IMG/VR virus record: IMGVR_UViG_3300034196_000113
Coordinates: 1-59,045 of that record
Reading direction: 5' to 3' (one strand)
From: a virus
Lineage: Duplodnaviria; Caudoviricetes
Length of the DNA stretch: 59,045 nucleotides
How positions within the stretch are numbered: position 1 is the stretch's first letter; every line of letters starts with the position of its first letter. Below the pieces are notes generated by a model that was not told the DNA's origin, did no database searches, and saw nothing but the letters and a program-made list of their open reading frames with translations. The position numbers and the translations under genes were made by a program. This document shows positions 3,415 to 53,248 of the stretch, in pieces.

Positions 3415-3876
3415 TCAGTGGCGAACGAGGCTGAGCAAATTGGCGATGCAGCGCAGGCCGGCGGCGCGTTGCTCGGGGGTGCGTCGCGAGTAGCCGGCGA
3501 TGGTCAGTCCGCGGTTGCGGGCCCGCTGGTCGTCGGGGTGGGACAGGGCGCAGGCGGTACGGAATTCGGCGATGCTCGGTGGCCAGGGGCAGGTTGCGCG
3601 GCAGATCGACAGTCCGCGGGCGATTTCCTCTGGCGTGGCGCCGGCCAGTCCCTCGGCCCATTCGAGTGCAAGCACTTCGGTCGCAAAGCCGGCAATGTTC
3701 TTTTCCCATTTCACGCCCCAGATCATGGCGAAATGCTCTAAGAGCAGGGCGATCTCGGATTCAAAATGGAAGTTTGCCGCCGGGGAAGAGGCTCTTAAGG
3801 TGCTCGAATTTAAGTCGGTGTTGTTCTTTTCGCTGTTCGTTGAGAGTGAATGCGTCTGGGGTGTGGGCTGTGCCAT
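3415..3876 (-). CDS. Replication protein P-like helicase loader
   Basis: EWAEGLAG...IARGL..CR...WPPSIAEFR..C motif; directly downstream of the O-like gene. Confidence 0.7.
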   Translation of the reverse strand: MAQPTPQTHSLSTNSEKNNTDLNSSTLRASSPAANFHFESEIALLLEHFAMIWGVKWEKNIAGFATEVLALEWAEGLAGATPEEIARGLSICRATCPWPPSIAEFRTACALSHPDDQRARNRGLTIAGYSRRTPEQRAAGLRCIANLLSLVRH

Positions 3877-4972
3877 TGGTCTTTCCACCGGGGTTGCTAT
3901 TGAGCGGCGTGTCGAGCTGACCGATGTAGTTTTCGCAATTGCTGGATCGGAATAGCGTGGCGGGTCGCAGGTATTGCCGCATGGCGTCGTCCGATCCCCA
4001 TTCCGCCGTCTTGCGGTCGATGACCCGTAACAGTTCCGACTTACCGTAATCCAGGATGCGCGCTTTGGCTAGGGCGGCGCCAGCCGTCGCCTTGCCGGTG
4101 TTCGTGCGGCTGCGGAAGGCGGTTCCGGCTTTCGCGTTGAGGTAATCGTACACATCGTCCACATCGTGCATCGTCGGGCTACTGCCCGACAAATGTGGAG
4201 GTTGCGGTTGGTGTTCGGGGATCGGCGCGGGGGGGGACAGGGGGAGGTCTTTTTGTTTACCTTCTTTGTTTATGTCTAATGATCGCGCGCGCGAGGCAAG
4301 CGTGTCCGAGCAATCTTTGACCACTTCGGGGGCAAAATCGGGGGCGAAAGGGGCGGGGGGGGTGCAATGGGTTGCATCGGGGGAAGTCCGGGGGGTGCAA
4401 CCGGTTGCATCGGGGAATCCCCGGGGGGTGCAACCGGTTGCATCGGGGAATCCCCGGGGGTGCAACTGGTTGCATCGGGCAATCTCCCAGGTGGGTGGTG
4501 GATTGGATGGCTCAGGCGCCGCATTATTGTTCATAAGCACCGGCCCTATTCGGATCGTGGTCGCGTAATCATACACAGCCCAGCTACTCTTGGGTTCGGG
4601 AACGGATGAAGGAGGGGGATTGGACGGGCGTCGAGCGCTATCGCCCCGTGTTCTTTCACGTAGTTTCTTATCCGACAATCGGTCGGTCGCCGGGGCTATA
4701 TCCCCGACCGCAAGACGGTAAACCGGGGCCCTTCCAGGCGTGCGCTCCAACGTCAATAAACCCCCCGTTTCCAGGCTTAGAATGCAGTACCGGATGGCGC
4801 GCTTCGTCAGTCCGATGTCCCGCTCCAGCCGTTTCATATTCGGCACGGCAATGTGATCCCCGGTGTTGTCGTCACCCCGGCTCGCCTGTCTGGCGAGCGA
4901 CACGAGGATAAATTTCGCGCTTGGATTCGCAATCTCTTGGCCATAAGCCCAGTTCATCGCCGCATCGCTCAT
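3761..4972 (-). CDS. Phage replication initiator (O-like) with N-terminal HTH and conserved phage C-terminal domain
   Basis: MS..AMNWA...SAKFILVSLA N-terminus; YLN.KAG..FR...W..D..M.QYLRP.TLF C-terminus; internal iterons. Confidence 0.8.
   Translation of the reverse strand: MSDAAMNWAYGQEIANPSAKFILVSLARQASRGDDNTGDHIAVPNMKRLERDIGLTKRAIRYCILSLETGGLLTLERTPGRAPVYRLAVGDIAPATDRLSDKKLRERTRGDSARRPSNPPPSSVPEPKSSWAVYDYATTIRIGPVLMNNNAAPEPSNPPPTWEIARCNQLHPRGFPDATGCTPRGFPDATGCTPRTSPDATHCTPPAPFAPDFAPEVVKDCSDTLASRARSLDINKEGKQKDLPLSPPAPIPEHQPQPPHLSGSSPTMHDVDDVYDYLNAKAGTAFRSRTNTGKATAGAALAKARILDYGKSELLRVIDRKTAEWGSDDAMRQYLRPATLFRSSNCENYIGQLDTPLNSNPGGKTNGTAHTPDAFTLNEQRKEQHRLKFEHLKSLFPGGKLPF
4361..4479. repeat. 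Four palindromic iterons inside the O-like gene (putative lytic origin)
   Basis: ggtgcaaNNNgttgcatcggg at 4361, 4394, 4427 and 4459 (spacing 33/33/32). Confidence 0.8.
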
Positions 4973-4981: not shown

Positions 4982-5350
4982 CTAGCATTGGCGCCGACGC
5001 GCGTTGAGTTCGTTGTCCCTGATGCGCTGGTTACGCGAGATTTCGATGAAAGCGGCTTGGACATCCGGGTTCATTGGAATCGACTTGTCGCCGCGCAGGT
5101 AGCGGTCGATGAAATACGCGTCGTCCACTCCGACCGTGGCGCAGGCCTCCAGGCCGCGGGCGACGAACTCGACGGGGGAGCCGAACTCGTCGGCCAGGGC
5201 GGCGGCTTTGGCCCACGAGAAGCGCTCGGCTAGCTCGGGGGCGTCGAGGATGCGGATGTTCTGCGAGGTGTAGGAAGGGTCGTCTGGGGGGGCCTGGGGG
5301 GCGTCGGACGGGTCTGGGGTGCGATCTAGCGCATGATCTGTCTCGGTCAT
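4982..5350 (-). CDS. Hypothetical protein
   Basis: 122-aa ATG ORF with normal composition, upstream of the O-like gene. Confidence 0.6.
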   Translation of the reverse strand: MTETDHALDRTPDPSDAPQAPPDDPSYTSQNIRILDAPELAERFSWAKAAALADEFGSPVEFVARGLEACATVGVDDAYFIDRYLRGDKSIPMNPDVQAAFIEISRNQRIRDNELNARRRQC

Positions 5351-6227
5351 GGGGAGGGTCCAGGGGTAAGGGGTAAATCCGGGCGCGCGAAATCCTTCCG
5401 GCGCAAAGGATTATGGCCGGTGCGGGGATTGTCGCGGCGTGGAAGTCGCACGCGAACGAACGGAACCGGGGCGCGGGGGCGTTGCTGGGGGCCATAACGC
5501 CGGCTCTTCTGCGTGCGGGGGAACGGCGAGGGCTCCAGGGGTACAATCAATCCTGGGGTGTGTCGCTGTCGCGTCGCCGGCTCTGGGACGCACTGGGGCC
5601 GGGGGATTGCAGCCGGCCCGAGACAGGGGCGAAAGGTTTGGACGAGCGGCGTTGCTGCGCAGTTCCGAAACCGGCCGCTAAACGGCGCTCTGAGCGCCCG
5701 AGCGGGCGACCCGCTACTCCCCTACCGGCCCCCCGGTCGTGAAACGCCTGCGCAAGCCGTCCGTGCGTCCCGGGAGGCATCGCGGACCCCTTCCGAGGGC
5801 TCCCCAAAGGCACCGACCGAATTTTCCGGCTTTCCGGATGTCCGTCTTTCTTGAAGGGCCCACCGGTTGCTGGTGCGCGGTGTCCAACGAGTCGTCGGCG
5901 TCATGCGGCGACCGTTGGGCCCTTCCCTCCCCTCCCCTCCCCTCTTGGTCCCCTCCCCCTCTTCGGCTTTCCCGCTTCGGCCCCTCTGCGCCCCGGTGCC
6001 TTCCGGCGTGCCCGGGAGCCGTCCGCATCCTCCCCGTCGGCAGCCTCTTCGATTCGGATCTGTCCGCACCCTGGGTGTAGGGGGCGGGCTGGGATCTTGA
6101 CGCGCGGATCTGGTTTTTTTTGGGCGCGATTTCCAAGGAAGCGCGCACGCTCGCGTTTTCCGTTTTAAGGTTTTAGAGTTTTAGAGAGGTTTTTCGCCAT
6201 TAAAATCAGTGGGCTACAGGGGTATAT

Positions 6228-6290: not shown

Positions 6291-6316
6291 TATGTGACAT
6301 TATTTGAGCGTGTCCC

Positions 6317-6325
6317 TGTGGATAA
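6317..6325 (-). promoter_or_regulatory. DnaA box
   Basis: TGTGGATAA is the reverse complement of consensus TTATCCACA; lies between the iterons and rep. Confidence 0.8.
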
Positions 6326-6345
6326 CTTTTAGCCTGCGGATAACC

Positions 6346-7224
6346 ATGACTCCTGCCGATAGCTCGCTCGTCACTCAAGCAAACCAAGTTGTTGAATCGT
6401 CTTACAAATTGACGCTGGCCGAGAAGCGCCTAATCCTCGTCGTGTTGACGAAGATCGACAGCCACCCCGACAAGCCCGCGGCACGGCCGGAAACGCTGAT
6501 CGAGATCGACGCAAGCGAGGTATCGGCGCATTTGCACCTGCCGCAGAGCGAGGCATATTTGATGCTCAAGGAAGCCGCGGATCGTCTGGCCGAGCGCTGG
6601 ATCATTATCGACCGGCCCCACCCCAGGAAGCCGAAGATGAAGCAGACCAAGACCCGTTGGGTGTCGGCGATTTCCTACATACCGGACGAAGGCAAGGTGC
6701 TTCTGCGCTTAGCCGAGGACGTGCTTCCGTATCTCACGCATCTGGCCGGCGAGTTTGTCCGCTACAGCATCGACCAAGTCGCCGATATGTCGTCGGTTTA
6801 CGCGATCCGGTTCTATGAGTTGCTGTTGCAATGGCTGGGGGAAGGTCAACGCGACGTTCCGCTTGACTGGCTGCGGGAAAAATTCGCGCTTCCCGATTCC
6901 TATAGCAACATTCGCGACTTGAAGCGCCGGGTTGTCGATCCTGCCGTAGAGCAGATCAACCTACATAGCAACCTCGAGGTTTCCTACGTACAGCGCAAGC
7001 GCGGGCGAATCGTGCAGTCGTTTCTTTTCACGTTCGGTGTCAAACAAGAACCCAAGCCGGCGCCCGCCGCCAAGCGTTCTCCCCGCACCAACAAGAAGGC
7101 GGAAACAGAAGCCCGGATAACCGCCGCGGCCAAGCCCGGCGAAACCCGCGAGCAGGTAATAGATCGGCTGGAACAGCTCCGCAAGCTCAAGGACGCCGTG
7201 AACGCCCCGGCGCCTAAGCCTTGA
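6346..7224 (+). CDS. repB: Plasmid replication initiator, Rep_3/RepB family
   Basis: LVTQANQVVESSYKLTLAEKRLI, RWVSAI.Y, S.YAIRFYELL.QW, DLKRRVVDPAVEQIN motifs; adjacent iterons. Confidence 0.92.
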   Translation: MTPADSSLVTQANQVVESSYKLTLAEKRLILVVLTKIDSHPDKPAARPETLIEIDASEVSAHLHLPQSEAYLMLKEAADRLAERWIIIDRPHPRKPKMKQTKTRWVSAISYIPDEGKVLLRLAEDVLPYLTHLAGEFVRYSIDQVADMSSVYAIRFYELLLQWLGEGQRDVPLDWLREKFALPDSYSNIRDLKRRVVDPAVEQINLHSNLEVSYVQRKRGRIVQSFLFTFGVKQEPKPAPAAKRSPRTNKKAETEARITAAAKPGETREQVIDRLEQLRKLKDAVNAPAPKP

Positions 7225-7707: not shown

Positions 7708-8057
7708 ACCGAGACGATCCTTGGTGGAGGGGTGGGCACCACCACTTCGGCTCCCGGCCGCGGTTTCGGTTCCGGCCCGTAAACGGGAAGGGGCTTGCGC
7801 GCGGCATCCAGATGGGCGAACACCCGCTCGATCTTGAGAACGCCGGGGTCTTCGATCTCGCGCCGCTCCAGCTTGCGCAGCCACTCCAGCCCCACGTCGC
7901 TTTGCCGCCCGATCTGTGCCAGCACCGCGGATTTCGACCTCCCGTCGGCCAGCGCCGCGCGCACCGACTTATCGAGTAACTTGTACGTTCGGTGTAAGAG
8001 CGAGGACGCGGGGATCGGGGCGCGTTTTGTTGATGGCGATGCGTTCTTTCTTCTCAT
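7701..8057 (-). CDS. Cro/XRE-like HTH regulator
   Basis: LAQIGRQSDVGLEWLRKLERREIEDPGVLKIERV is an HTH; first gene of the leftward early operon. Confidence 0.7.
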   Translation of the reverse strand: MRRKNASPSTKRAPIPASSLLHRTYKLLDKSVRAALADGRSKSAVLAQIGRQSDVGLEWLRKLERREIEDPGVLKIERVFAHLDAARKPLPVYGPEPKPRPGAEVVVPTPPPRIVSVC

Positions 8058-8154
8058 AATGCGCAGAATCTCTAAGATATTTGGCCGCTGGCCAACGACT
8101 AGACTGTTATCCGGCTGCATTGTACCGGGGAAAAGATTCCCGGGCGAGGACACG

Positions 8155-8445
8155 AGCCGTATCGAGCGCGAGAACCGTCTAAGTAGTGCGACCAGCCGTT
8201 GAGTCGAGAGTACCGGGGTCGAAAGCGAAGCCGTGTGGAAAGAGGGAACCGGAGCGACTACGCGATAGCCGCAACGTCAACGAGAATCGAACTACCCGTG
8301 CGATAGTCGTGCAGTCGAAGAGTACCGGTCTGAAGACGCGACACTCAGCCGCTCCAGCGACGCGAATCGAGGGACAAGAGCGACAGCCGTCTTTCCAGTG
8401 AGGACCGGTTCGGATGCGCGACATCCCGAAAAGGATACGTGAAAA
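8155..8445 (+). ncRNA. TIGR-like dual-repeat guide array, block 1a (~7 units plus a partial unit)
   Basis: AGCCG-N9-YGAGAACCG-N9-YGCGA units, e.g. agccg tatcgagcg cgagaaccg tctaagtag tgcgacc. Confidence 0.85.
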
Positions 8446-8450
8446 TACTG

Positions 8451-8479
8451 TTGTCACGGTAATGTTTTGTTGGTAGGAT
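8451..8479 (+). promoter_or_regulatory. Sigma70-like promoter inside the array locus
   Basis: TTGTCA-17 bp-TAGGAT with extended -10 TG, followed by a leader hairpin. Confidence 0.65.
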
Positions 8480-8511
8480 TTTCCCGGTGGCAGGGATGCC
8501 GCTGGCCAATG

Positions 8512-8628
8512 AGCCGGGTAAAATGCGAGAACCGTTGGTAAAGCGCGACAAGTCGTGTTCGATACCAGAACCGAACCAGCGATGCGATAAGTCTTGCTCG
8601 TTGTGCGAATCGTAAACAATGCGCGAAA
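8512..8628 (+). ncRNA. TIGR-like array block 1b (3 units)
   Basis: Same dual-repeat units as block 1a. Confidence 0.85.
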
Positions 8629-8632
8629 GCTA

Positions 8633-8842
8633 ATGACGAACGACCCCGACGACAATCCCCCGTCTCCGAGTTATGACGACCCGGTATTCTTCACGCCAGG
8701 TTGCACGGTGCTGTATCAAGAAGTCGCCTGGGTGGTCCGCCGCGTCAATGTCGGAGCGGACGGGAAGGTCTACTCGCTGAACATCGACCGGCCTGGGGTG
8801 ACGACGTGCGTGGGGCCGAGTCATGTGATTAGGGTTGAGTGA
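8633..8842 (+). CDS. Small hypothetical protein embedded between array blocks
   Basis: 69-aa ATG ORF exactly filling the repeat-free gap; its TGA overlaps the next AGCCG. Confidence 0.65.
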   Translation: MTNDPDDNPPSPSYDDPVFFTPGCTVLYQEVAWVVRRVNVGADGKVYSLNIDRPGVTTCVGPSHVIRVE

Positions 8843-9845
8843 GCCGACATCAACACGGGAACCGTGCCGGATATGCGAAGCCTGGGGTAACGTGGGATCT
8901 GTGTCAACAGTGCGAAGTCGGGCAAAGGGCGAGAACCGTTTCGGAAGTGCGAAGCCGTTGTCAGAGTGTGGACCGCGCCATCTGCGCGAAGTCGGGCGAA
9001 TTGCGAGTACCGAATCAGAAGTGCAAGCCGCCATGTCAACGAGAACCGTGGAAGACAAGCGATCAGTCGAGTTGTGGGCGAGAACCGCGCGCGAAGTGCG
9101 ATAGCCGGGTTCCGCGTATGAAGCGCGCCCGAAATGCGATAGTCGAGAAATCCGCGAGAAACCGTGCGTTTAGTGCGATAGTCGAGAAGTCAGCGGGAAC
9201 CGTGCGGGGGTGCGATGAACGAGCCGAAAAGCCGGCGAGAACCTAAGACCAAATGCGAGTCGTGAAGCCGATGTGAATCGGTATAGTTGTGCGACAATCC
9301 GTAAATATAGCGAGAACCGCATCTTGAGTGAGAAGCCATGAAATTGGCGTGAACCGGAGAAGTTGTGCGATAGCCGCAAAGTATGCGAGAACCGGAAGGC
9401 CGACGCGATAGCCGGGCGGATGCGAGATACCGCAGTCGAGGTGCGAGAAGCCGTGAAGTAGGTCAGAACCGGAAAACGAACGCGATAGCCGTTCCGTCTG
9501 TGGGAACTGTACGTGCGGTGCGATAGCCGCGTAGATCGCTAGAACCGAAGCAAGCGCGCATTAGGTCAATAGCCGTATGAAATGTGAAAACCGGGCCGCG
9601 CGTGCGACGAGCCGACAGACTAGCAAGAACCGAAAACGATGCGCGATCAGCCGCTTGTCCAGCCTGAACCGTATGAAGAATGCGACCAGCCGCAATGCTG
9701 ACGAGAGCCGCGAACCCTGCGCGAGAAGCCGCTAAGAAAGAGTGAACCGTGCCGTCAATGCGATCAGTCGTAATTGACGTGAGAACCGTACAACCTGCGC
9801 GCGAAGCCGCAACATGAGTCTGAACCGTGACAATAAAGCGAGAGC
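8842..9845 (+). ncRNA. TIGR-like array block 2 (~26 units)
   Basis: Continuous ~38-39 nt period with two alternating repeats and unique 9-nt spacers. Confidence 0.9.
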
Positions 9846-9853
9846 AACAAACA

Positions 9854-11044
9854 ATGAATGAAGCAAGTGCGATACCGAGCGACGACAGCGAAAAAGACGG
9901 CAAGAAGTTCAAGAAGAAAGAACTCAAGGAGCAGTTGGCCAAGAAGGCAAAGGAGATCAAAGAGCAGACCAAGGAAATGCTGGAGCAGGAGAAGCCGCCC
10001 GAACAGTTGCAGCCGATGATCCGGCTGAACAAAGACGGGGTTGCCGCCCTGTTGGCCGGGCAATCCGGGGGGCCGATGCCGTCGGCGGGGGTTGCCGGGG
10101 CGTCGAATATCTCCGAGGCGCGCATCCTGGTCGATCTGTATTACGCGATGCAGGAGTACCGCAAGGGCTTCGACAATCAGGTGGGGGCCATCGAGCGGGG
10201 GGCCGATCAGGCGACCACGCACGTCAGCGCAGACTTCATCGGCACCCAAATCGACGTGCTGGAGAGCAACGCCAAGCTGTTCCTCGAGGTGTTCGCGTCC
10301 TCGCATCCCATGTGGGGCTGGTTTAAGGCCGTGCATGGGATCGGTCCCGTGCTCGCCGCCGGGCTCATTGCCCACTTCGGAAGCCGCGCCCTCCCGCCCA
10401 CGGTGGGCCATTGGTGGCGATTCGCAGGCCTCGATCCCAGCCAACGATGGTTGAAAGCCGATGCGCTGTCCGACCTGTGGAACGAGCAGGAAGGCGACAT
10501 CGACCAGCGGACCCGCAACGTCGCGGCCATTGTGGGCCGCTCGCCCGACACGGTGATTCGGGATGCGACCGTCGATTTTAAGACCGGGGAGACCAAGCCG
10601 CTGACCCGGGCGGGAGCGCTCAAATCGTTGGCGCGGATTCCGTTCAATCGGCCATTGAAGACCCTTTGTTGGAAGGTCGGAGATCAATTCGTGAAGCTGG
10701 GGGCCAGAGAGGACGCCTTTTATGCTCGGTATTACCGCAACCGCAAAGCCCAAGAGATCGCCCGCAATGAGGCCGGCGAGCGTGCCGCATTGGCTGCGAA
10801 GACCTTATCTGAAAAACCGAGCCATGCGCAACGGGCGACCTATGCGGACGGGCGCTTACCGGACGGGCGGGTAGACTTAATGGCGAGACGGGCGACCGTC
10901 AAGTTGTTTCTCTCTCATTTGCATGAAGTGTGGTGGAGGGTCGAGCATGACGGAGAAATGCCGCCGAAGCCATTCTCTGTAAGCATTCAGGGTCATGCAC
11001 ATTACATACCGCCACCACACTTGGATGCCGTAGGGCTGGAATAG
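9854..11044 (+). CDS. Nop/IS110-like RNA-binding protein without a nuclease domain (TasA-like)
   Basis: HGIGPVLAAGLIA...WWRFAGLDP...PFNRPLKTLCW...FYARYY...MARRATVKLFLSHL match the Transposase_20/Nop fold; no N-terminal DEDD RuvC motif; flanked by arrays. Confidence 0.85.
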   Translation: MNEASAIPSDDSEKDGKKFKKKELKEQLAKKAKEIKEQTKEMLEQEKPPEQLQPMIRLNKDGVAALLAGQSGGPMPSAGVAGASNISEARILVDLYYAMQEYRKGFDNQVGAIERGADQATTHVSADFIGTQIDVLESNAKLFLEVFASSHPMWGWFKAVHGIGPVLAAGLIAHFGSRALPPTVGHWWRFAGLDPSQRWLKADALSDLWNEQEGDIDQRTRNVAAIVGRSPDTVIRDATVDFKTGETKPLTRAGALKSLARIPFNRPLKTLCWKVGDQFVKLGAREDAFYARYYRNRKAQEIARNEAGERAALAAKTLSEKPSHAQRATYADGRLPDGRVDLMARRATVKLFLSHLHEVWWRVEHDGEMPPKPFSVSIQGHAHYIPPPHLDAVGLE

Positions 11045-11046
11045 AG

Positions 11047-12826
11047 AGTCGTACAGCGCGCGAGAATCGACGCCAGAGTGCGAGCCTGGCGAGAGGTCTG
11101 AACCGAATCGAACGCGCGACAAGTCGAGTAGTACGCGAGAACCGTATGCCAAGCGCGAGAAGCCTGGATTTTGGCGAGAACCGTACCAAGCACGCGATAG
11201 CCGTCTTGGAGGCGAGAACCTGACAAATAGTGCGATAAGTCGGGCCTTTTGTGGGAACCGTATAAACGGCGCGACCAGCCGCAGCTCCAACAAGAACCGT
11301 CCCGCCCGTGCGATAGCCGTGGGATCTATGTGAACCGGGCGAAAGGAGCGACAAGCCGAATTCCAGGCGTGAACCGAATGCGAAGCGCGACAAGTCGTGA
11401 ATACTGCGTGAGCCGTACAAGAGGCGCGACCAGTCGAAAACCAAACGTGAACCGAAACCGATACGCGATTAGCCGTATTGGCTGTGGGAATCTACACCGT
11501 GGCGCGATAGCCGGGCCTTTGGCGAGAACCGTATTCGCAACGCGAGAAGCCGCACAGTTCGCGTGAACCCCTTGTCTGGTGCGACAAGCCGTGAAGCTAG
11601 TGAGAACCGAACACTGAGTGCGAGAAGCCGTGAAGCGTGCGAGAACCGTCAATCTAACGCGAGAAGCCGTGAACCGTGAGTGAATCGTCACGCGAACGCG
11701 ATAAGTCGAGCAGGCGACGAGAACCGAGTAGCGGACGCGATAGCCGTGATAAAAGCGGAGAACCCGAACACCAAACGCGATAGCCGCGGACTCGGCGTGA
11801 ACCGAGCAGTTCGCGCGATGAATGATCCGGGATGAAGGCGAGTACCGTTGAGGTAGCGACCAGCCGTGAAAGCCAAGAGAACCGTCGCGGATATGCGAGA
11901 AGCCGCGAAGAAGACGTGAACCGAAAGCGTAGTGCGAGAAGCCGCGAAGAAGACGTGAACCTAAGGCGTAGTGCGATAAGCCTCACGTATACGAGAACCG
12001 TGGAGGCGTGCGATGAAAGAGCCGTGAATTACGTTAGAATCGTAGCCGTCGCGCGATGAGTCGAGAAAATAGCGAAAACCGTTTCTAGAGTGCGATGAGT
12101 CCAGAAAAGAGTGAGAAACCGCCGGAATAGTGCGATCCGCGCCAAACGCGAAAGCCGGGCCTAGTGTGAATAGCCCGTAGAGATATGAGAAACCGAGAGA
12201 ATTGAGCGAGTCTTGAGGGTACACGAAGCGAACTACGCGTGCGATAAGCCGGAAGTAAAGCCAGAACCGATTCTCGCGTGCGACCAGCCGTGGGAGTAAG
12301 TGTAACCGTCGGGCCGGCGCGACCAGCCGTTAATCAGGTGGGAACCGTCTATAAAGTGCGAGAAGCCGCGGATCGTGTTTGAACCGACTGGGCCATGCGA
12401 GAAGCCGCGCGGTTCGCGAGAACCGAAATGAAGGCGCGACAAGCCGACGAACTAACACGAACCGTTATCGGGGTGCGACCAGCCAATTGAACTGGCGAGA
12501 ACCGCGTGGGTGATGCGAGAAGCCGTGACAGGCATTTGAACCGTGTAGGTAATGCGACCAGCCGCCTAACTGGCGAGAACCGTAAGAAAAACGCGACCAG
12601 CCGTGTCTAATGAGTGAATCGTGCCGATGGTGCGAGAAGCCTTCAACCCAGTGTGAATCGGAAGAACTGTGCGACCAGCCGTCAGTTCAGCGAGAATCTG
12701 AGTTGGAGTGCGATAAGCCGGCAGACAGAGCGAACCGGAATAAGGAGCGAAGCCGTATGATCACGCGTGCCGACCCAAAGCGCGATCAGTCGAGATAGCC
12801 AAGAGAACCGGTGAAGTCGCGCGATG
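11047..12826 (+). ncRNA. TIGR-like array block 3 (~46 units)
   Basis: Starts 2 nt after the Tas stop codon; e.g. agccg tgaagctag tgagaaccg aacactgag tgcgaga agccg. Confidence 0.9.
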
Positions 12827-13126
12827 GAGTACCCTACTCTTTGCCGCAGGGATGCGGCACCACTCGGCGATCAGAGTTCTACGATGATAAAGCTCAAGAA
12901 ACTGAACAAAGAGAAGTGGGAAGCAATCGAATACCTCACGATTTGGCAGTTCGCTTGTATTGCCAACGACGTGGAGCCGCCGGAGTCGTTAGAGGAATTC
13001 CTGGACTCGTATGCCGGGTTCGTGCATATCGGGGTCTTGTTTATGATGCTCTCTATTGCAGAGAAAGCCGGTCAATTCGAGATTATAAAAAACCCCGACG
13101 AGCCGGATAAGAAGGTTGTTCACTGA
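12824..13126 (+). CDS. Hypothetical protein
   Basis: 100-aa ORF whose ATG lies within the last edge repeat (gcgATG); an internal start (MIKLKK) is possible. Confidence 0.6.
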   Translation: MEYPTLCRRDAAPLGDQSSTMIKLKKLNKEKWEAIEYLTIWQFACIANDVEPPESLEEFLDSYAGFVHIGVLFMMLSIAEKAGQFEIIKNPDEPDKKVVH

Positions 13127-13141
13127 GCGGGCGATACCGGA

Positions 13142-14092
13142 ATGAGCCAAGACTTGATCGTTGTGCAGAAAGGCGACCCGTGGGAGCCCCCGGCGATCAT
13201 CTACGATCTGCCGGCCGAGCAGTATTTCGGCATCGAAGCGGCCAGCTCGCATTTGTTGTCCGCGATGGTGCGGCAATCCCCGCTGCACGCGAAGACCGAG
13301 AAGCCGCCGACCAAGGCCAAAGACCTGGGGTCGCTGGCCCACCTGATGATCCTGGAGCCCGACCGGGCGGCGACGGACGTGCAGGTTAAGCCGCGCAATG
13401 CCGACCGTGCGAGCAATGCCGGGAAGCGGGCGCTGGTGGGGTGGATGCTGGAGATATTGAAATGTCCCGAGCCGGCGACGACCCCGGGGCTTGCGCCGGG
13501 CAAGGCGCTGGACGAAATGCTCGCGGTGCTGGAGCCCATGCTTGCAACGTCCGATGCGTTCGTGGCGACCCAGCAAACATTCGAGACGGCGCAGCGGATG
13601 CGCGATTCGGTATTTGCCAAGGCGATTGGGCGGGCTATCTTTGAAGACGGGAAAGCGGAAGTGACGATGCTCGCCAAAGATCCGGAGACCGGCGTGCTGT
13701 GCCGGATCAGGGCGGATTGGATGCCCGATGGCCACTGGTTGATGGTGGATCTGAAATCGGCGGCGAGCGTGTGTTACGACGAGTTTGCCAAGGCGGCGGG
13801 GAAATATAACTACCATATCCAAGCCGCGTTTTATCGGCATGTGGAAGCGCTGGTCAGCGGCGTCTTGAAGAAAAAATTCCTGCATGTGGTGGTAGAAAAC
13901 GTCGAGCCGTTCGACTGTGCATTCTACGAGCTGGACGAGGTTGCTCTGGATCACGGGACGCGGCGCTACGAACAGGGACTCGATTTATATGCCCGCTGTA
14001 TGTTGGCGGGATATTTCCCGGGGGTGCAATGGGATTGGGGGGTCAACGATTACCGGATCGAGTCGCTGCAATTGCCCAAGTGGGCGCTGTAG
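13142..14092 (+). CDS. RecE/ExoVIII-like PD-(D/E)XK exonuclease (DUF3799-like)
   Basis: GSLAHLMILEP, CRIRADW...VDLKS, Y.YHIQAAFY. Confidence 0.85.
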   Translation: MSQDLIVVQKGDPWEPPAIIYDLPAEQYFGIEAASSHLLSAMVRQSPLHAKTEKPPTKAKDLGSLAHLMILEPDRAATDVQVKPRNADRASNAGKRALVGWMLEILKCPEPATTPGLAPGKALDEMLAVLEPMLATSDAFVATQQTFETAQRMRDSVFAKAIGRAIFEDGKAEVTMLAKDPETGVLCRIRADWMPDGHWLMVDLKSAASVCYDEFAKAAGKYNYHIQAAFYRHVEALVSGVLKKKFLHVVVENVEPFDCAFYELDEVALDHGTRRYEQGLDLYARCMLAGYFPGVQWDWGVNDYRIESLQLPKWAL

Positions 14093-14134
14093 CGCGCCGG
14101 GACCATTCTTCACTTTGCGAGAGCACCCAAGCCC

Positions 14135-15418
14135 ATGCCCAACGAAATGGCAACGATTCAGTCGTCGAACGAAATGACGCTGGTCTCCCGGCCGCAACCC
14201 GTCAACATTTTCGGTACACCGGAGAATTTCGCCTTTGCCGCCCGGATGGCCAAAGCCTTCACCAGTTCGGCCTTGGTGCCTAAGCACTACCGGGGCGAGG
14301 AAAACCTGGGGAGCGTCCTGATCGCAATCGACCTGGCGAACCGGCTGGACGTGTCCCCGCTCATGGTCATGCAAAATATGTCCCCTATCGAGGGCAAGCC
14401 GGCCTGGAGTTCCAAGTTCCTGATCGCGGCCGTGAACGCGAGCGGGCGCTTTACCCCGTTGCGGTTCAAATTCGAGCGGGACGAGAAGCCGCACGACGTG
14501 GAGTGGACCGACTACGTGTGGGGCGACGGGAAGCGCCCGACGCCCACGAAGAAGGTGGCGAAGGACATTTTGAACCGACGGTGCCGCGCCTACGCGACGG
14601 ATCTGCGCACCGGCCTGGAGTTGGAAGGGCCGGAAGTCTCCATCGTCATGGCCATCCAAGAGCGATGGTATTTCCGCAATGGGTCCAAATGGCCCACGAT
14701 GGGCGAGCTGATGCTGAGCTACCGGGCCGCGAGCCTTTGGACCGGCATCTTCGCGCCCGAGCAGACGATGGGGTTGCCCACGGCAGACGATGCGGCCGAC
14801 GCGATCGATGTCACGCCCGAGCGGGTGATGGAGACGAAGGAACCGGAAGTGGCCAGCGGATTGGACTCGCTGTCGGCGCGGGCCCGCGAACTGCGCGAGA
14901 AGGAGACGGACGCAGGGCCCACCGAGCCCGAGCCCACCCCCGCGCCCAAGGAAGCCAAGAAAGCGCCCGAGGACGATGCCGATGCGGATGTGTCGGGCGA
15001 ATGGCCCCGCGCCGCGCCCAATGGCGTGCTCTACGACGCCCGCGGCGTAACGCATATCCCCGGCTGTCACTCGGGCGGAAAGACCTGTAACCGGGACGGG
15101 TCTTGGCGGCTGCGTAAGGGAGTGGCCGAAGTGGCGGCGAACGCGATGGAAGCCCGCTACCCGAGAGTCGACCCGAAGAGCCTCGAGGCCCCTCCCCCGC
15201 CGGATGACGAACCCGGCGAGGCGTTCGCGGCGCCAACAAAAGGCGGGGACAATGACGGCCCCAGTTACGACGACGCCCTAGAGTGGATCGCGTCGGCCGA
15301 TACCACCGAAGAAGTCGACGGGGGTCTGGACGCGGCGCGCGATCTGGATCTTAGCGAGGGACAGCGGGCGGATCTCGTGGAGTATGCCGAGAAGCGCCGG
15401 GCGGAATTGATGAGGTAG
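14135..15418 (+). CDS. RecT/Beta-like ssDNA annealing protein with a long acidic C-terminus
   Basis: AKAFTSSALVPKHYRG...IAIDLANRLDVSPLMVMQN...GKPAWSSKFLIA; ML.YRAA; adjacent to the exonuclease. Confidence 0.75.
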   Translation: MPNEMATIQSSNEMTLVSRPQPVNIFGTPENFAFAARMAKAFTSSALVPKHYRGEENLGSVLIAIDLANRLDVSPLMVMQNMSPIEGKPAWSSKFLIAAVNASGRFTPLRFKFERDEKPHDVEWTDYVWGDGKRPTPTKKVAKDILNRRCRAYATDLRTGLELEGPEVSIVMAIQERWYFRNGSKWPTMGELMLSYRAASLWTGIFAPEQTMGLPTADDAADAIDVTPERVMETKEPEVASGLDSLSARARELREKETDAGPTEPEPTPAPKEAKKAPEDDADADVSGEWPRAAPNGVLYDARGVTHIPGCHSGGKTCNRDGSWRLRKGVAEVAANAMEARYPRVDPKSLEAPPPPDDEPGEAFAAPTKGGDNDGPSYDDALEWIASADTTEEVDGGLDAARDLDLSEGQRADLVEYAEKRRAELMR

Positions 15419-15420
15419 GA

Positions 15421-15537
15421 AGTCGTCGCGGTTGCGAGAACCGAGACTTGCGTGCGAGAAGCCTTGCGAGAAGCGAGAACCGCTAACGACGTGCGACAAG
15501 CCGTCCGAAAGACAAGAACCGTCCCGCGAGTGCGATG
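15421..15537 (+). ncRNA. TIGR-like array block 4 (3 units)
   Basis: agtcg tcgcggttg cgagaaccg agacttgcg tgcgaga..., starting 2 nt after the RecT-like stop codon. Confidence 0.85.
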
Positions 15538-15543
15538 CTAACC

Positions 15544-15574
15544 GGGTGGGCCGCAGGGCCCACCCTCCCCTTTT
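15544..15574 (+). terminator. Putative intrinsic terminator closing the array operon
   Basis: gggtgggcc-gcag-ggcccaccc hairpin followed by tcccctttt, between convergent operons. Confidence 0.6.
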
Positions 15575-15968
15575 AGTAATGCGCCGCCGGAGGAACCGGG
15601 CCCGGGTCTTCGGTGCCGGGCAGCAACTCCGGGTCGGGCTGGGGCTCGCCTTCTCCACCTTCCCCACCTTCCCCGGGCAGCGAATGGGCCGAGACGGCTT
15701 CCGCAAGCACCTGAGTTTGCGCGTCGAGCGCATCGCGTAGGGCCGTGAGTGCGGCCGGATCGTTCTCGGCAATCGCTTCGTCGAGCTTGTCGCGGATGCC
15801 GGTGATGAGGGTAACCGCCGAGTCGATGGCGCCGCGATTTTCTTCCACTTCCGCGCGCAGACTGTCGAGTAGCTGGGACATAGTATGTGTTCGCTCCAAG
15901 AGAATATCGAGTTGGGCCGTCATTGTAGAGTCCGGTTGGACGAAGACCCGCACTTCTACGAGAGGCAT
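15573..15968 (-). CDS. Hypothetical coiled-coil phage protein
   Basis: LRAEVEENRGAIDSAVTLITGI helical ORF; start may be at 15881. Confidence 0.65.
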   Translation of the reverse strand: MPLVEVRVFVQPDSTMTAQLDILLERTHTMSQLLDSLRAEVEENRGAIDSAVTLITGIRDKLDEAIAENDPAALTALRDALDAQTQVLAEAVSAHSLPGEGGEGGEGEPQPDPELLPGTEDPGPVPPAAHY

Positions 15969-16426: not shown

Positions 16427-18850
16427 TTAGAACACTTCGATTTCGATGGAAGGAAGTTCGGGGCCTAGGTCTTGGATCCGCCCATCCTTCACCCAGACCG
16501 GTGTGCCGAGCGAGAGGGCGAGCGCTTCGTTCGCGCGCACCCGCAGGGTTCCCCCGCCGATGGGCTGGACGGTGACCGTGCCGTCGCCATGCAGTATAGA
16601 CACCGCGCCCAGCAGCAGCGGGAACTCGGGGAGGATGCGTTTCCATGCGGCCCACTGGTTGGAAGTTTCCTCGCCGATGGTGACCGTTTGCTTGACCGAG
16701 AGCTTGCCGCCGGAGTTGGTGACGGCGATGCCGACCGAGTTGGCGATGCCGCGATGGTCGTCCCCGCCCAGCTCCACCGAGATTAGTTGACCGATTTCGA
16801 CCAATGGGAAGTGCGCGCCGCCCAGCGGAAGCTCGAACGTGCGAACCTGGGGCTGGCGTTCTTGGGCCGCGAGCAACCGGGAGCCGAAGAGTCGGGCCCC
16901 GTCCGTGTGGGTGACGAGCGGGGAGATTCCGGTTTCGGGGATGTGGTGGTCGCCGGCCGTGCCGGAGCGCCAGACGCGCGCGAGCATTCCGCCAACCTCC
17001 TGCCCGTGGACGTAGACGGCATTGGCTTGGGCGGGGAAGCTGGTCGCGAGCGAGAGCACGCGCAACGCCGCATCGGGCACAACCAGATCGGGATCGGTTT
17101 CGTCGTAGTGCCAGGGCAGGACCGGATAGCGCGGCTGCACAACCAGCACCCGCTCGGCCGGCTGCGGGATGACCACGAGCCCCACGCTGAGCGCCGCTTG
17201 ATGGATCGCTTGAATCGGGGATTGGTTTTGCCAGCCGTAGGCGCCGGCCGGGATCAGCCAATCGGGGGTGCCGGGAGCGAACTCCAGGGACCACGGGGAG
17301 CCGAACGGAATGGACTCGGCCATTGCCTGTTGGATGGTGCGGTCGAATGCGGTGGACCCGGACGTGGCTTCTTGGGCGGGGGTGGCCAGCTCGGCGGATA
17401 GTCCGCGGCCCGACACGCGCACGGTGCGCCGGTTGAATGCCCGGTCGTGACCCCATTCCTCCACCACAAGGTGCCAAATTCGGTCGTCGATGCGGGCCTC
17501 GAGGATGACCGGCTCGCCCAACGCCGACGGCATGACGGCCTCGAGCGCATCGGCCCCGCCGATGGACCCGCTCCAGGCATAGGACCAGGAGTCGCAGTCG
17601 AGCGAGATCCCGAGAGAGACCGGTGCAACGGGCAAGCGGTCGCTCAGGCGGACCAGCTCAATGTCGTGGAACACGATATAGCTCCTGCGGCGCGGGATCG
17701 TAAAGGGTTCGCGAAGGCTGAAATCGCACCCGAGAACGCCCAGGTCGAGCCGGGCGCCGGGCGGGAGCGGATAGCCGAGGCAGAGGCGTGCGCTCCAGGT
17801 CGGTTCCCAGGGACCGGGGGGTTCGACTACCGGGAGACGGGCGACGTACAGGATGAGCCCCGCGTCCCTCCAGGTCGGCAGACGGGCGACCAGCAGCGGG
17901 AGGCCTGCGGCAAAGCGAAAGCGCAGCGAGTCCTGGACCCGGCCCGCATCGCGCCATCCGTGCAACGCCCGGCCTGCGCGCCCCGGGTTGATGCGCCGCG
18001 GGTACTCTCCGGGGAAATCGACTGCGTTCCAGGGCGGCGGATAGTCGAGATACCGGAACAGATTGAAATCGTTTGGACCAATCAGGAGCGGCAGGGGCTC
18101 GTCGAAGTGCGGGGACTTGGGCTTCCAGCTCGCCGCCGGGCCGACCCGCTCCCCTCGCCCACCCTGCCAGCGCCCGAGGCGCGCGGCCTGCGCCCGTGCC
18201 GCCCCCGTCCAGCCTACCGGCGCCCGCCCGGCCACCGGCTTGCCGTCTCGCCAGGGCGCCGCCGCGGACCCGGCAGACGCCGGAACGGATCGCCAGCCGG
18301 GGCGTTCGTGCCGCGTTGCAGCCGTCGCGTCTCGCCAGGGCGCGGGAGACGCGCCAACCGCTCCTGGAGCCTCCACGAACCGGATCGCGTGGGCGGCGTC
18401 CGTGGCCAGGGCTTCGCGCCAGGATGCAGGCGAACGCCCGACGGTATCGCTGAGCAGGTTGGGATCGTAGGAGACGGCGACGATGGCCCGCGGGGAGCTG
18501 GTCCGGGCGACCACCTCCACGCGGCGCACGTCGAAGACCTTGCCTGCAAACTGGGGGGCACGGGTCTGGGCGGATATCGCCAGCGGGAGGATCTGCCCGA
18601 CGATGGCCGCGAGGCGCGGTGCACGAGTGCGACCGGAGATCGCCAGCGAGCGGTTGTTGGTGGGCTCTTCCCCGGTCCCTCCGAGGTTCAGTCTGGGATT
18701 GCCGATGGCCCCTTTGAGATCGAGTGCCGCCGAGACTGGCGGTTGTCCGCCTTCCGACTCGGCCTCGAAATAAACCCAGCCTTCCGCTATCTCGTAACCT
18801 GTCGCAAGATCGAAGTCTACGGCATCGAATAGCGGAGAAGAGTACGACAC
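16427..18850 (-). CDS. Tail tip/hub-like structural protein
   Basis: 807 aa in the tail module; PRYPVLPW, NAVYVHG, and an OB-like C-terminus. Confidence 0.7.
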   Translation of the reverse strand: MSYSSPLFDAVDFDLATGYEIAEGWVYFEAESEGGQPPVSAALDLKGAIGNPRLNLGGTGEEPTNNRSLAISGRTRAPRLAAIVGQILPLAISAQTRAPQFAGKVFDVRRVEVVARTSSPRAIVAVSYDPNLLSDTVGRSPASWREALATDAAHAIRFVEAPGAVGASPAPWRDATAATRHERPGWRSVPASAGSAAAPWRDGKPVAGRAPVGWTGAARAQAARLGRWQGGRGERVGPAASWKPKSPHFDEPLPLLIGPNDFNLFRYLDYPPPWNAVDFPGEYPRRINPGRAGRALHGWRDAGRVQDSLRFRFAAGLPLLVARLPTWRDAGLILYVARLPVVEPPGPWEPTWSARLCLGYPLPPGARLDLGVLGCDFSLREPFTIPRRRSYIVFHDIELVRLSDRLPVAPVSLGISLDCDSWSYAWSGSIGGADALEAVMPSALGEPVILEARIDDRIWHLVVEEWGHDRAFNRRTVRVSGRGLSAELATPAQEATSGSTAFDRTIQQAMAESIPFGSPWSLEFAPGTPDWLIPAGAYGWQNQSPIQAIHQAALSVGLVVIPQPAERVLVVQPRYPVLPWHYDETDPDLVVPDAALRVLSLATSFPAQANAVYVHGQEVGGMLARVWRSGTAGDHHIPETGISPLVTHTDGARLFGSRLLAAQERQPQVRTFELPLGGAHFPLVEIGQLISVELGGDDHRGIANSVGIAVTNSGGKLSVKQTVTIGEETSNQWAAWKRILPEFPLLLGAVSILHGDGTVTVQPIGGGTLRVRANEALALSLGTPVWVKDGRIQDLGPELPSIEIEVF

Positions 18851-18856
18851 GCTAAC

Positions 18857-20506
18857 TCATCGGTCGGGGAAGACTACAGCCGGGGGCGTGAAGTTTGCCG
18901 TATACCGGGCTACACCCTTGGTAATTCTTACTTCGTCAATGTTTCCAAAGAATTTATGCGAAGGATTTGTATCGTCTGCCCCGATAACCGCTCTACCGCC
19001 ACCGGGAATACCGATGGCATTCGCATAAGTAACATTTCCTAGAGGAACGCCGTCTTGGTAATAGGTAATAACCGAACCAGAACGCACCCAGGCAACGTGC
19101 GTCCACGTCGTTAATGGGAGTGGAGTCCCGGTCGCCGTTAGCAAATTACCACCACCGATGAACGTAACGGAGGCGCCAGAGCCATCGAATCCAAGCAAGA
19201 ACGGATATCCGCGCGCGGATACCCAATCCCCGAAAACGCACCGATATGAGCTTCCAGGCTTCGCAAAAACGAACGCTTCAAACGTGAAATCTCCAGGGAA
19301 GTAAAAATCAACGCTCGTCCCGGTATAAATACAGCCACCCGTCCCGTTTAAGTCGAGAGACGAGCTTCCTTGCTTCTTAATGCCAGTAACATGCTTTGCA
19401 GTTCCGACAGTCGTAAGGGCGCCTCCTTTTGTAGCCGTAAATACCGCCGAGTCGTTTGCCCCTTCCATATGGCACAACAGAACGACATTGGCGAAGTATG
19501 GATCTGCCCCAGGGTCGGCCTCAAGGAACGCCGCAGTCGGAGGCGTAAAGTTTGCGGTGTAACGTGCAAGTCCTTTGGTGATTCTTATTTCGTCGAGATA
19601 GCCATGGAAGCCTCCCAAAATTTCTCCGTTATACAGGCATCCGCCAATTCGAGACACCGAAGACGATAAACTACCGGAGGTAGTCCCCGTTGCGTCCAAT
19701 ACCCCGTCGAGAAATAACCGGCGCGCAGTCCCTTGGCGGGTCAATGCAAAGTGGTGCCAAGCGTTAAGCGTAACCGTCGTCGCGCCAAGAAGTTCCCCGT
19801 CCCCGTTTCTAAACGCATAAAGTTTGTTGCTATTATCTTCTTTGAAGCCAAGAAGAAAGCGATTGGTGAAATCCGTTGCGGAATCGTATTGGCTATAAAT
19901 GTATCTGCCCCATGCCACGCTCGAAGAGTAACTAATCGGGAAAAACCACCCCTCAATCGTATAATCCTCGGAAGCAATAAGCGAAACCCCTGCACCAATA
20001 GCGTCCCCATCTCCGTCGAAATAAGCGGATGCCGTTCCGAACTTCTTTTGCGCAGTTACCTGTTTAGCATTGCCTGCAACGGCTATCGTTTTTCCTTTAA
20101 CGTCTACGAATGCTGTGGACTGGTCGGCCCCGTCCATATGCAGCAATAACACCACCTTGGCCCAATGCTCATCGTAGGCTATTGCCATCACTTCGACATG
20201 CGGCTCAATCCGCCCATGAACGAGCGGCCTGACCCCATCCCCGTAATCGCAAACGACAAGGTAAGTCTCCCCAGCCTTCATCACCAGCCCAAGGTTATCC
20301 TCGAACTTGTAATAGCCGTTAACTGCACTGGCGATAACCTTCGCCCGAAACTCCAGATCCGCATAGTTGTGAAGCGAAACAACCGCGGCGACTGGTTCTC
20401 CGTTTAACCGGGCAACGCCTTCGATGGTGTAAATGTTGCCCGCGAATCCTCCGAGCCCGACCCAGTTGCCCGTAACCGTATTCCAAACTTGCGGCGAATA
20501 GCTCAT
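18857..20506 (-). CDS. Receptor-binding protein with two LamG/ConA-like domains
   Basis: Duplicated LLxHM(D/E)GA...W.H.A..R.G...DE.RITKG.ARYTANFTPP; lower GC. Confidence 0.8.
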   Translation of the reverse strand: MSYSPQVWNTVTGNWVGLGGFAGNIYTIEGVARLNGEPVAAVVSLHNYADLEFRAKVIASAVNGYYKFEDNLGLVMKAGETYLVVCDYGDGVRPLVHGRIEPHVEVMAIAYDEHWAKVVLLLHMDGADQSTAFVDVKGKTIAVAGNAKQVTAQKKFGTASAYFDGDGDAIGAGVSLIASEDYTIEGWFFPISYSSSVAWGRYIYSQYDSATDFTNRFLLGFKEDNSNKLYAFRNGDGELLGATTVTLNAWHHFALTRQGTARRLFLDGVLDATGTTSGSLSSSVSRIGGCLYNGEILGGFHGYLDEIRITKGLARYTANFTPPTAAFLEADPGADPYFANVVLLCHMEGANDSAVFTATKGGALTTVGTAKHVTGIKKQGSSSLDLNGTGGCIYTGTSVDFYFPGDFTFEAFVFAKPGSSYRCVFGDWVSARGYPFLLGFDGSGASVTFIGGGNLLTATGTPLPLTTWTHVAWVRSGSVITYYQDGVPLGNVTYANAIGIPGGGRAVIGADDTNPSHKFFGNIDEVRITKGVARYTANFTPPAVVFPDR

Positions 20507-21411: not shown

Positions 21412-21417
21412 CGGCGC

Positions 21418-21816
21418 TTACCCCTCTGCAATAACCTGCGAAGTAATCGCCGCGAGGGCGCCCTGCACGAAGCTGGCGTTTTCCACAATGATCGCCGCCC
21501 CCGACCCGGCCACGCCCACATCTGCATCGGAAACCACGGCACCGACCGAGTCCAGATAGCGGCCCCAGACCGGGCTACCGGCCGCGAGGATCATAGCCGG
21601 AGCCGGGATCGCGCCGGTCCATACCCCGTCCTCTGCAACCCCGCTCGGGTCGGGCAACTCGAATTCGCAGAGTTTGACCTGGGCGCCGACTGCGGTGTCC
21701 GGGGAAGCCGGGCGCGCCGAGGTGTAGAGCCGGAGTTTCCCCCCGTTGAGCCATATGGAATGCTGGACGGCGCGGATCTGGCGCCGGGCGCTGGCAAAAG
21801 CAACGAGATCGCTCAT
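21418..21816 (-). CDS. Virion structural protein
   Basis: GGKLRLYTSARPASPDTA motif; start MSDLV at 21816. Confidence 0.65.
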   Translation of the reverse strand: MSDLVAFASARRQIRAVQHSIWLNGGKLRLYTSARPASPDTAVGAQVKLCEFELPDPSGVAEDGVWTGAIPAPAMILAAGSPVWGRYLDSVGAVVSDADVGVAGSGAAIIVENASFVQGALAAITSQVIAEG

Positions 21817-45589: not shown

Positions 45590-45609
45590 CACGCGAGAGC
45601 ACAAAAAGT

Positions 45610-49040: not shown

Positions 49041-49135
49041 GCGGTCATTGTAGCAGGGATTTTCCGGCGAATAGGTTGTTTCAAAAACCGTCGGATTTTA
49101 ATTATTGGAAAGACCCAAAAACGCGTGCGATATCA

Positions 49136-53246: not shown

Positions 53247-53248
53247 CA

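Follow-up and report, generated by a model that had tools for sequence, protein, structure and literature searches.

The viral DNA analysed here, a stretch of 59,045 nucleotides (nt) covering positions 1 to 59,045 of IMG/VR record IMGVR_UViG_3300034196_000113 and referred to at its full length as the window, carries between positions 8155 and 15535 a locus that we interpret, with a probability of about 85%, as a dual-repeat TIGR-TasA system of a tailed phage from peat soil, in which a nuclease-free Tas protein of 396 amino acids (aa) is accompanied by some 85 guide units arranged in five blocks. The array had already been noticed in a preliminary description made from the letters of this DNA, and that observation is confirmed. 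The blocks and the gene that they flank are as follows:

8155..8421, + strand: TIGR array block 1a, 7 units; starts AGCCG (the 3' half of an edge repeat) and ends CGCGA
8512..8626, + strand: TIGR array block 1b, 3 units
8842..9841, + strand: TIGR array block 2, 26 units; 12 nt separate its end from the tasA start codon
9854..11044, + strand: tasA, encoding a 396-aa solo-Nop Tas protein
11047..12824, + strand: TIGR array block 3, 46 units, of which 44 were parsed and 2 are degenerate
15421..15535, + strand: TIGR array block 4, 3 units; starts 2 nt past the stop codon of a RecT-like gene and ends TGCGA

Apart from one 90-nt gap, a 69-aa open reading frame (ORF) and the 396-aa gene, the + strand from 8155 to 12824 is made up entirely of dual-repeat units of about 39 nt with the layout AG(C/T)CG - 9 nt - YG(A/T)GAACCG - 9 nt - YGCGA. 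When both strands of the window were searched with a strict form of this layout (AG(C/T)CG with at most one mismatch, N9, (C/T)G(A/T)GAACCG with at most two, N9, (C/T)GCGA with at most one), 67 matches were obtained on the + strand, 64 of them within 8155-12824 and three at 15421-15535, and none on the - strand; together with the two alternating repeats and the 9-nt spacers, this result bears out the claim that the locus has the anatomy published for dual-repeat TIGR arrays. The half-unit pattern GAACCG-N9-YGCGA (at most one mismatch) occurs 75 times in the window, 69 of these in the arrays on the + strand, against 6.46 +/- 2.66 occurrences (largest value 16) in 100 dinucleotide-preserving shuffles. 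Contigs from two other peat-metagenome runs (X2 and X3) reproduce pieces of the array, of which 8176-9207, 11361-12388 and 12556-12939 are examples, with no differing letter, which means that the array did not arise as an error of a single assembly; a further run, possibly the one from which the window DNA derives, is not independent, and the phage is present in at least three such runs (X1-X3).

The number of units depends to a small extent on how the degenerate ones are treated. A relaxed tiling parse that also allowed 8- and 10-nt spacers yielded 81 units, two more (8990 and 9258, each having one base in common with a neighbour) were added by hand to give 83, and two degenerate units at ~12136 and ~12210 were read by eye in gaps of 36-37 nt. 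For the four blocks around the 396-aa gene this parse and its additions arrive at the count that had been proposed before, 7+3+26+46 = 82; the extent then assigned to the array, 8.15-12.83 kb, is right for these four blocks but missed the fifth, whose three units at 15421-15535 (+) bring the total to ~85. Every block begins with AG(C/T)CG, as had been stated and as now holds for all five, none being preceded by YGCGA, and all five end with (Y/A)GCGA, which is to say that the block borders are edge-repeat halves. Counts on repeat anatomy given below refer to the 83 parsed units, and statistics on guides to the 72 units that have two 9-nt spacers.

Unit length is tightly kept: 65 of the 76 start-to-start spacings under 60 nt measure 37-39 nt (39 nt in 43 cases, 38 in 14 and 37 in 8), in agreement with the period of ~38-39 nt noted earlier. 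Spacer A is 9 nt long in 76/83 units and spacer B in 74/83, and the spacers are, as claimed, nearly all unique (71/72 for A, 72/72 for B). Their ninth base is a purine in 71/72 spacers A and 72/72 spacers B and must therefore be regarded as half-fixed, leaving eight free positions, so that the notion of two 9-nt spacers stands as regards length but not as regards nine equally free bases. The free positions have a G+C content of 47%, compared with 61% for the window. An apparent richness of the spacers in purines (60-62%) was rejected as a feature, for without the fixed ninth base it falls to 55-57%, the value of the neighbouring + strand genes.

The edge repeat, of ~12 nt, reads YGCGA, 0-2 free bases, AGCCG, and the 9-nt loop repeat reads YG-WGAA-CCG, in which an A-rich tetraloop-like linker separates box D from box C; both repeats thus start with YG and end with CCG, at the places of box D and box C. 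In the tigRNA of TaTasR, box D is UG, box C is CCA and the loop-repeat linker is likewise A-rich (PMC12045711), and the earlier designation of a CCG-type repeat variant is apt, CCG replacing CCA in both repeats. Box C is CCG or TCG in the edge repeat of 72/83 units and in the loop repeat of 70/83, and box D is YG in the edge repeat of 76/83. Judged by its letters, the edge repeat can also form the extra G-C pair (YG-C...G-CCG) described in PMC12045711.

The protein encoded between blocks 2 and 3 comprises a K/E-rich helix and a disordered stretch (residues 1-85; in the model described below, the helix and a low-confidence loop), a coiled-coil hairpin (~87-147) and a Nop domain (~150-396), and it retains a conserved C-terminal motif, GHAHYIPPP, which includes the invariant histidine H381. 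In sequence searches against the PDB it matches the TIGR-TasR structure 9mty (phmmer, E-value (E) 6e-6), and with a profile built from 39 homologues the hits include 9mty (1.4e-20), TasH (1.2e-8) and IS621 (1.3e-5); the family is large, with 2304 representatives of 50%-identity clusters at E <= 1e-3. PHROGs places it in phrog_4285, 'transposase' (E 4.5e-31), and the Pfam family Transposase_20 stays below threshold (E 0.033, 15 bits against a cut-off of 21.3); of the 'Transposase_20/Nop fold' proposed for this protein, the Nop part is consequently secured by the sequence and fold matches in the PDB, whereas the Pfam part is not. Pfam returned no nuclease family at E <= 1 and no DEDD_Tnp_IS110 match for the protein.

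The AlphaFold2 model is all-helical (predicted local distance difference test score, pLDDT, 87.5; predicted template modelling score, pTM, 0.78), and in a Foldseek search TasR or TasH chains make up its entire top ten. Alignment with VIA-align against the folds for which a comparison had been suggested places TasH (Z 18.3-18.9 over 223-237 residues, root-mean-square deviation 3.0-4.4 A) and TasR (Z 17.5 over 194 residues, 2.8 A, 25% identity) ahead of IS621 and ISCro4 (Z 13.0-13.3) and of the Nop5 chain 1nt2_B (Z 7.1). The alignments begin at about model residue 80, equivalent to residues 62-66 of TasH or 112 of TasR and thus past their nuclease domains; residues 1-85 of the model hold no such domain, in keeping with the nuclease-free Nop-fold protein described at the outset. 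A Tas fold without a nuclease domain identifies the protein as TasA. Symmetric dimers held together by the coiled coil are typical of Tas proteins, and a TasA homodimer is predicted here too, with helices 87-113 and 122-147 at the interface (score 0.45, the best of three controls reaching 0.00; contacts agreeing in at least 73% between runs, partner pLDDT at least 80); among proteins with solved structures, 20 of 30 known as pairs and 1 of 23 known as single chains pass the same mark, and since solved Tas dimers exist the prediction may owe its pass to those structures. SpTasH lacks any equivalent of a ~60-residue insertion in the Nop domain (~199-258), which the model shows as three short helices with a beta hairpin. 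The insertion varies in the family at large and is conserved in the close clade.

The phage affiliation that had been asserted for the locus is well founded: the window holds the gene set of a tailed phage, with large terminase, portal, protease, major head, tape-measure and tail genes. Neither an integrase nor ParB was found among the ORFs scanned, nor any cas-like annotation (33 ORFs compared with PHROGs, 32 with Pfam). Around and between the blocks the following further features can be distinguished:

8084..8098, + strand: leader motif GCCGCTGGCCAACGA, 57 nt before block 1a
8422..8511, + strand: non-repeat gap of 90 nt between blocks 1a and 1b, with a promoter-like site and a hairpin containing GCAGGGATGC (8490-8499)
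8498..8512, + strand: second copy of the leader motif (GCCGCTGGCCAATGA), running into block 1b
8633..8842, + strand: 69-aa ORF inside the array, an orphan with a gene-like G+C content at third codon positions (GC3) of 0.74
12824..15418, + strand: three genes between blocks 3 and 4
within 12824..15418, + strand: 100-aa ORF after block 3, no match
13142..14092, + strand: PDDEXK/exonuclease VIII-like gene
14135..15418, + strand: RecT-like annealing-protein gene
15544..15574, + strand: terminator-like hairpin with a 9-bp G+C-rich stem and a 4-nt loop, followed by UCCCCUUUU

All five blocks and the five ORFs interleaved with them lie on the + strand, and genes and blocks are 0-12 nt apart. The ATG of the 69-aa ORF stands 6 nt past block 1b, and block 2 takes its first base from the A of the ORF's TGA stop codon; block 3 begins 2 nt past the tasA stop codon and its last base is the A of the next ATG. 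The 69-aa ORF found only itself among proteins of 37-121 aa and has no Pfam or PHROG match. Of the five blocks only the last is followed by a terminator-like hairpin (-23 kcal/mol, z -2.35, with 1 of 200 shuffles folding as well, and a U-run after it), which a consensus scan did not list and which is the likely end of a + strand transcription unit holding all five blocks. The gap between blocks 1a and 1b contains a sigma-70-like site, TTGTCA-17-TAGGAT at 8451-8479, as a candidate promoter.

The leader motif occurs in two exact copies, and at up to two mismatches it has four matches against 0.55 expected; GCCGCTGGCCAAYGA stands before both block 1a (8084-8098) and block 1b (8498-8512). The hairpin with GCAGGGATGC is likewise found twice, at 8490-8499, 12 nt before block 1b, and at 12846-12855, 21 nt after block 3. 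These recurring border motifs may serve as leader or processing signals, or may be what is left of a leader duplication. No Rfam family reaches its gathering score in 7900-15800.

Elsewhere in the window there are two replication-initiator genes, one phage O-like with Phg_2220_C (3761-4972, - strand) and one of the plasmid Rep3 type with WH1 and WH2 (6304-7224, + strand), and this pair, with no integrase among the ORFs scanned, may point to the lifestyle of a plasmid-like prophage. A MoxR-like AAA ATPase gene (49762-50784) and a DUF2201 metallopeptidase/VWA-like gene (53234-54742) belong to the same + strand cluster, and a DUF5131 gene lies at 45586-46479. A search of the window for tRNAs as a clue to the host found none.

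Relatives of this TasA at 58-64% identity were found in three IMG/VR viruses (loci L001-L003 on genomes G001-G003), two metagenome contigs (L007 and L009) and contig SACH01000605 of a metagenome-assembled genome (L010), the last of these, at 64% identity, having an entry in the published Tas catalogue. In L001-L003, L007 and L009 the tasA gene is likewise flanked by arrays built of the same repeats; these arrays share the loop repeat (Y/A)GAGAACC(G/A) with the window, a purine at the ninth spacer base in every relative and, in all five relatives with parsed guides, a free-spacer G+C content below that of the locus (by only ~2 points in L003). L003 has the 12-nt edge repeat and 39-nt unit of the window in 13+7 units, L002 has 20 units of 36 nt, and L009, whose TasA is 63% identical, has ~26 units in which CCA replaces CCG in both repeats, a change that, on its letters, is the edge-loop covariation described for TIGR arrays. 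The relatives have ~20-27 units compared with 85 in the window. No guide is common to the window array and the related arrays, the closest differing at 6-7 of 18 positions.

The phage backbones are otherwise unrelated, with a large terminase and a portal only 22% and 24% identical to those of G003 and no match for either in G001 and G002; the tasA-array module therefore moves between phages. A tblastn search of GenBank phages with TasA gave no match at E <= 1e-3, a scan of viral contigs with the single TasA protein found no relative, and blastn with the head and packaging genes of the window produced only five weak matches to capsid genes. G002 (L015-L017) has two tasA genes ~2 kb apart (~18005-18910 and ~20883-21953), 32% and 62% identical to that of the window, with its 20-unit array just before the second.

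How so long an array came about may be glimpsed in the guides themselves. Among 2556 guide pairs the two closest, differing at 1 and 4 of 18 positions, are formed by immediately adjacent units (11901/11940 and 11626/11665), the smallest distance in column-shuffled controls being ~5.3, and Tandem Repeats Finder delimits four patches of alike neighbouring units (11587-11701, 11901-11976, 12059-12135 and 12481-12596). These near-duplicate neighbours hint at duplication and divergence of units, and they are direct, if modest, evidence on array expansion, a process of duplication and divergence that was called an enigma in 2025 (PMC12045711). The spacers A at 11587, 11626 and 11665 all begin TGAAGC or TGAACC, and a TGAA start is seen in 9/72 spacers A; L002 and L003 each have near-duplicate units at a distance of six. 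Guides at lag two are also slightly more alike than random pairs (mean 11.66 against 12.39 differences, with 1 of 2000 permutations as low), and nothing of the kind appears at lags 1, 3 and 5; the lag-two likeness may be a trace of two-unit duplications or an effect of multiple testing.

As regards targets, a site of the form 5'-A + revcomp(B)-3' was adopted, a geometry of our own derivation from the 8-nt 3' overhangs and the 'C - 5 rule' published in PMC12045711, and the other orientation was tried as well. Against 96.7 kb of the relatives' loci the best match of a window guide was 16/18, as in controls, and three whole related virus records gave no hit at 16/18 or better; at 15/18 the same records returned 10 hits, where 10 shuffles returned 2-6, and we do not build on so weak an excess. 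In a genome collection of 596 billion bases any one 18-mer would turn up some 17 times by chance, and in one of tens of billions several times, too often for a few capped scans to tell signal from chance. Two candidate roles were tried and rejected: guides aimed at neighbouring repeat-spacer junctions, where nothing exceeded controls, and guides spelling a ribosome-binding site and start codon (0/72 against 0.6 +/- 0.8 in shuffles). The statement that the system is probably aimed at competing mobile elements or host genes is overstated, for all that has been found is that the guides match the phage's own genome no better than chance. In the reverse comparison, 2 of the 16 parsed guides of G003 match the window, L003:7602 at 17/18 (48774-48791, within a 151-aa ORF at 48684-49139 that has no homologue in G003) and L003:5911 at 16/18 (14332-14349, in the RecT-like gene), against an expectation of ~0.07-0.19 such hits, as estimated with non-cognate pairs and with the other orientation; after 12 cross-comparisons these may be chance, and we treat them as a lead only.

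Several observations weigh against the reading of the locus as a TIGR-TasA system. The layout of the repeats given in the preliminary description is correct, but the repeats are rather degenerate: the four boxes (C = YCG, D = YG) are all intact in only 35/83 units, three in 39, two in 8 and one in 1, and the box D of the loop repeat is YG in only 56/83, for which reason part of the array may be non-functional. Processing raises a second difficulty. SpTasH cuts its own precursor by means of Y289 and H296 (PMC13421893), a Y/H dyad located on the C-terminal loop of its Nop domain and stated to be conserved in dual-repeat systems (preprint 10.64898/2026.09.09.750476). In an hhalign profile alignment with the SpTasH gene at L011:14395-15324 (probability 97.4%), H296 falls on H381, invariant in 39 and in 30 homologues, but Y289 falls on Phe374, making self-processing by the TasH mechanism doubtful; a near-invariant tyrosine (Y384) stands three residues past H381, as in TaTasR. 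The phenylalanine is the majority residue of the whole clade and no private mutation, and it bears on whether the TasA of this clade cuts its own precursor. Promoter-like sites in the region (four, against 2.3 +/- 1.7 in shuffles) are not above chance, and since the locus appeared in no RNA run among the sequencing runs searched, its transcription, its processing and the length of its guides are only what we infer. Finally, no target was found among the DNA of the window and its relatives, and the site geometry is our own derivation rather than a rule taken from PMC12045711.

Some of these points would fit a decaying relic, in which TasA or most units are dead and the size of the array reflects neutral tandem amplification, an explanation also in line with the near-duplicate neighbours and with the better preservation of all four boxes in L002 (19/20) and L003 (13/20). 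A relic would hardly be expected to keep its unit length, its 9-nt spacers, its almost wholly unique spacer set and its block ends exactly on edge-repeat halves, nor to be recovered as identical sequence in contigs of two other runs; furthermore, the phenylalanine is common to most of the clade and the tasA ORF is intact, with all columns that are invariant in 39 and in 30 homologues (the window protein being the first row of both alignments), and we judge decay to be improbable as an account of the locus.

Less probable still is that the guides regulate the phage's own genes, for instance in lysis-lysogeny or replication control, rather than foreign DNA. The locus does lie in the early region, beside a divergent gene and the two replication-initiator genes, and the preprint 10.64898/2026.09.09.750476 counts 'regulation of the viral lifecycle' as one conceivable role; guide 11704, moreover, matches 16/18 at 5701-5718, between a - strand ORF (5031-5546) and the Rep3-type gene at 6304. 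That match is at chance level, because shuffled controls reach 17: the 72 guides, compared with the window after masking of the arrays, had a mean best match of 13.42/18 and a maximum of 16, while five shuffled pairings gave means of 13.19-13.33 and a maximum of 17, and the opposite orientation 13.49. Within the arrays themselves there were 9 hits at 14/18 or better, against 8-13 in controls.

An IS110-family transposase accompanied by bridge-RNA-like or plain tandem repeats (a CRISPR array, a minisatellite, a repeat protein) scarcely merits consideration, for the weak Transposase_20 match, the 'transposase' PHROG, the IS621 Z of ~13 and a 39-nt period divisible by three are set against a protein with no DEDD/RuvC domain, a model with no beta-sheet domain whose alignment spans only IS621 residues 124-319 and which scores 4-6 Z units higher with Tas chains, ~85 units instead of one two-loop bridge RNA, two alternating repeats (9 and 12 nt) with 9-nt spacers, where a CRISPR array has a single repeat of ~25-36 nt, spacers of like size and cas genes in the vicinity, no matching Rfam family, and no ORF longer than 135 aa (+) or 220 aa (-) overlapping the arrays, those within them lacking the high GC3 of the phage genes.

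If the locus is a TIGR-TasA system, as we favour, a mechanism may be sketched whose steps on transcription, binding, cutting and targets are taken over from the published family. Blocks and interleaved genes would be transcribed as one long + strand RNA ending at the hairpin at 15544-15574; a TasA dimer would bind each unit through its box C/D motifs, and the precursor would be cut within the edge repeats into guides of ~39 nt, a cut that would also trim the messenger RNAs (mRNAs) because the genes abut the blocks. The resulting complex of two TasA subunits and one tigRNA would bind an 18-bp DNA site, 5'-A + revcomp(B)-3', with spacers A and B pairing to opposite strands, and, having no nuclease, would block transcription or replication there; the targets would be foreign to the phage genome and belong to the host or to rival mobile elements. 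The array itself would owe at least part of its growth to tandem duplication of whole units, the copies then diverging by point changes. A more far-reaching synthesis is possible although on balance doubtful, namely that such arrays grow without adaptation machinery by unit duplication and point divergence, the 85 guides being a far-run example, that the low-G+C guides form a broad repertoire of repressors against A+T-richer sites (e.g. promoters) of the host or of rivals, and that cutting at the edge repeats separates the mRNAs of early genes.

The TIGR-TasA system and the repressor action of TasA have already been published (2025-26), and the locus is notable mainly for the size of its array. 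The 'very large' repertoire claimed at the outset is indeed large: TIGR arrays have 'most often 5 to 15' units (PMC12045711), 65,635 tigRNAs in 4,126 arrays make a mean of ~16 per dual-repeat array (Xu et al. 2026, preprint 10.64898/2026.09.09.750476), and the array of the window, with ~85 units, has about four to five times the usual length. To this may be added the genes abutting the blocks, the hints of growth and the phenylalanine at the position of the TasH catalytic tyrosine. Natural TIGR targets and the gain of guides are stated open questions (PMC12045711), and a target search with the ~85 guides of one phage gains severalfold in statistical power over one with the usual 5-15; other contigs of the peat-metagenome runs with the phage should include its host and rivals.

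The nearest described systems are FpTIGR-TasA of Flavonifractor plautii (Faure et al. 2025, PMC12045711), where TasA binds unit-length RNAs, and MbTasA (Xu et al. 2026), the preprint presenting TasA as a tigRNA-dependent repressor. According to their published descriptions, on which the likeness is based, these too combine a solo coiled-coil/Nop protein with arrays that flank its gene on either side and in which edge repeats alternate with loop repeats (8-12 nt) and two 9-nt spacers; they have the same boxes C and D in both repeats and are carried by phage; dual-repeat TIGR-TasA loci also share blocks that begin and end with half edge repeats and a terminator past the last block. The window differs from them, as far as those descriptions go, in its CCG box C, its five blocks interleaved with five ORFs and its more degenerate repeats, and its 39-nt unit exceeds the usual 36 nt because the edge repeat has 12 nt, which is within the published 8-12-nt range.

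TaTasR (9mty) and SpTasH (9w03, 9w04 and 21kl; Salicola phage CGphi29) have the coiled coil and Nop fold in common with the window protein (Z 17.5-18.9), TasR also the motifs GIGPV..AGL and GH..YI.PP, but the window TasA is without their RuvC or HNH domain, and SpTasH for its part is without the ~199-258 insertion and has Tyr289 where the window has Phe374. With IS621 (8wt6) and Nop5 (1nt2) only the RNA-binding Nop-type domain is common (Z ~13 and 7.1): the window TasA has neither the DEDD catalytic domain of the former nor the fibrillarin-binding domain of the latter, and in place of a bridge RNA or a K-turn snoRNA its RNA is an array of minimal guides.

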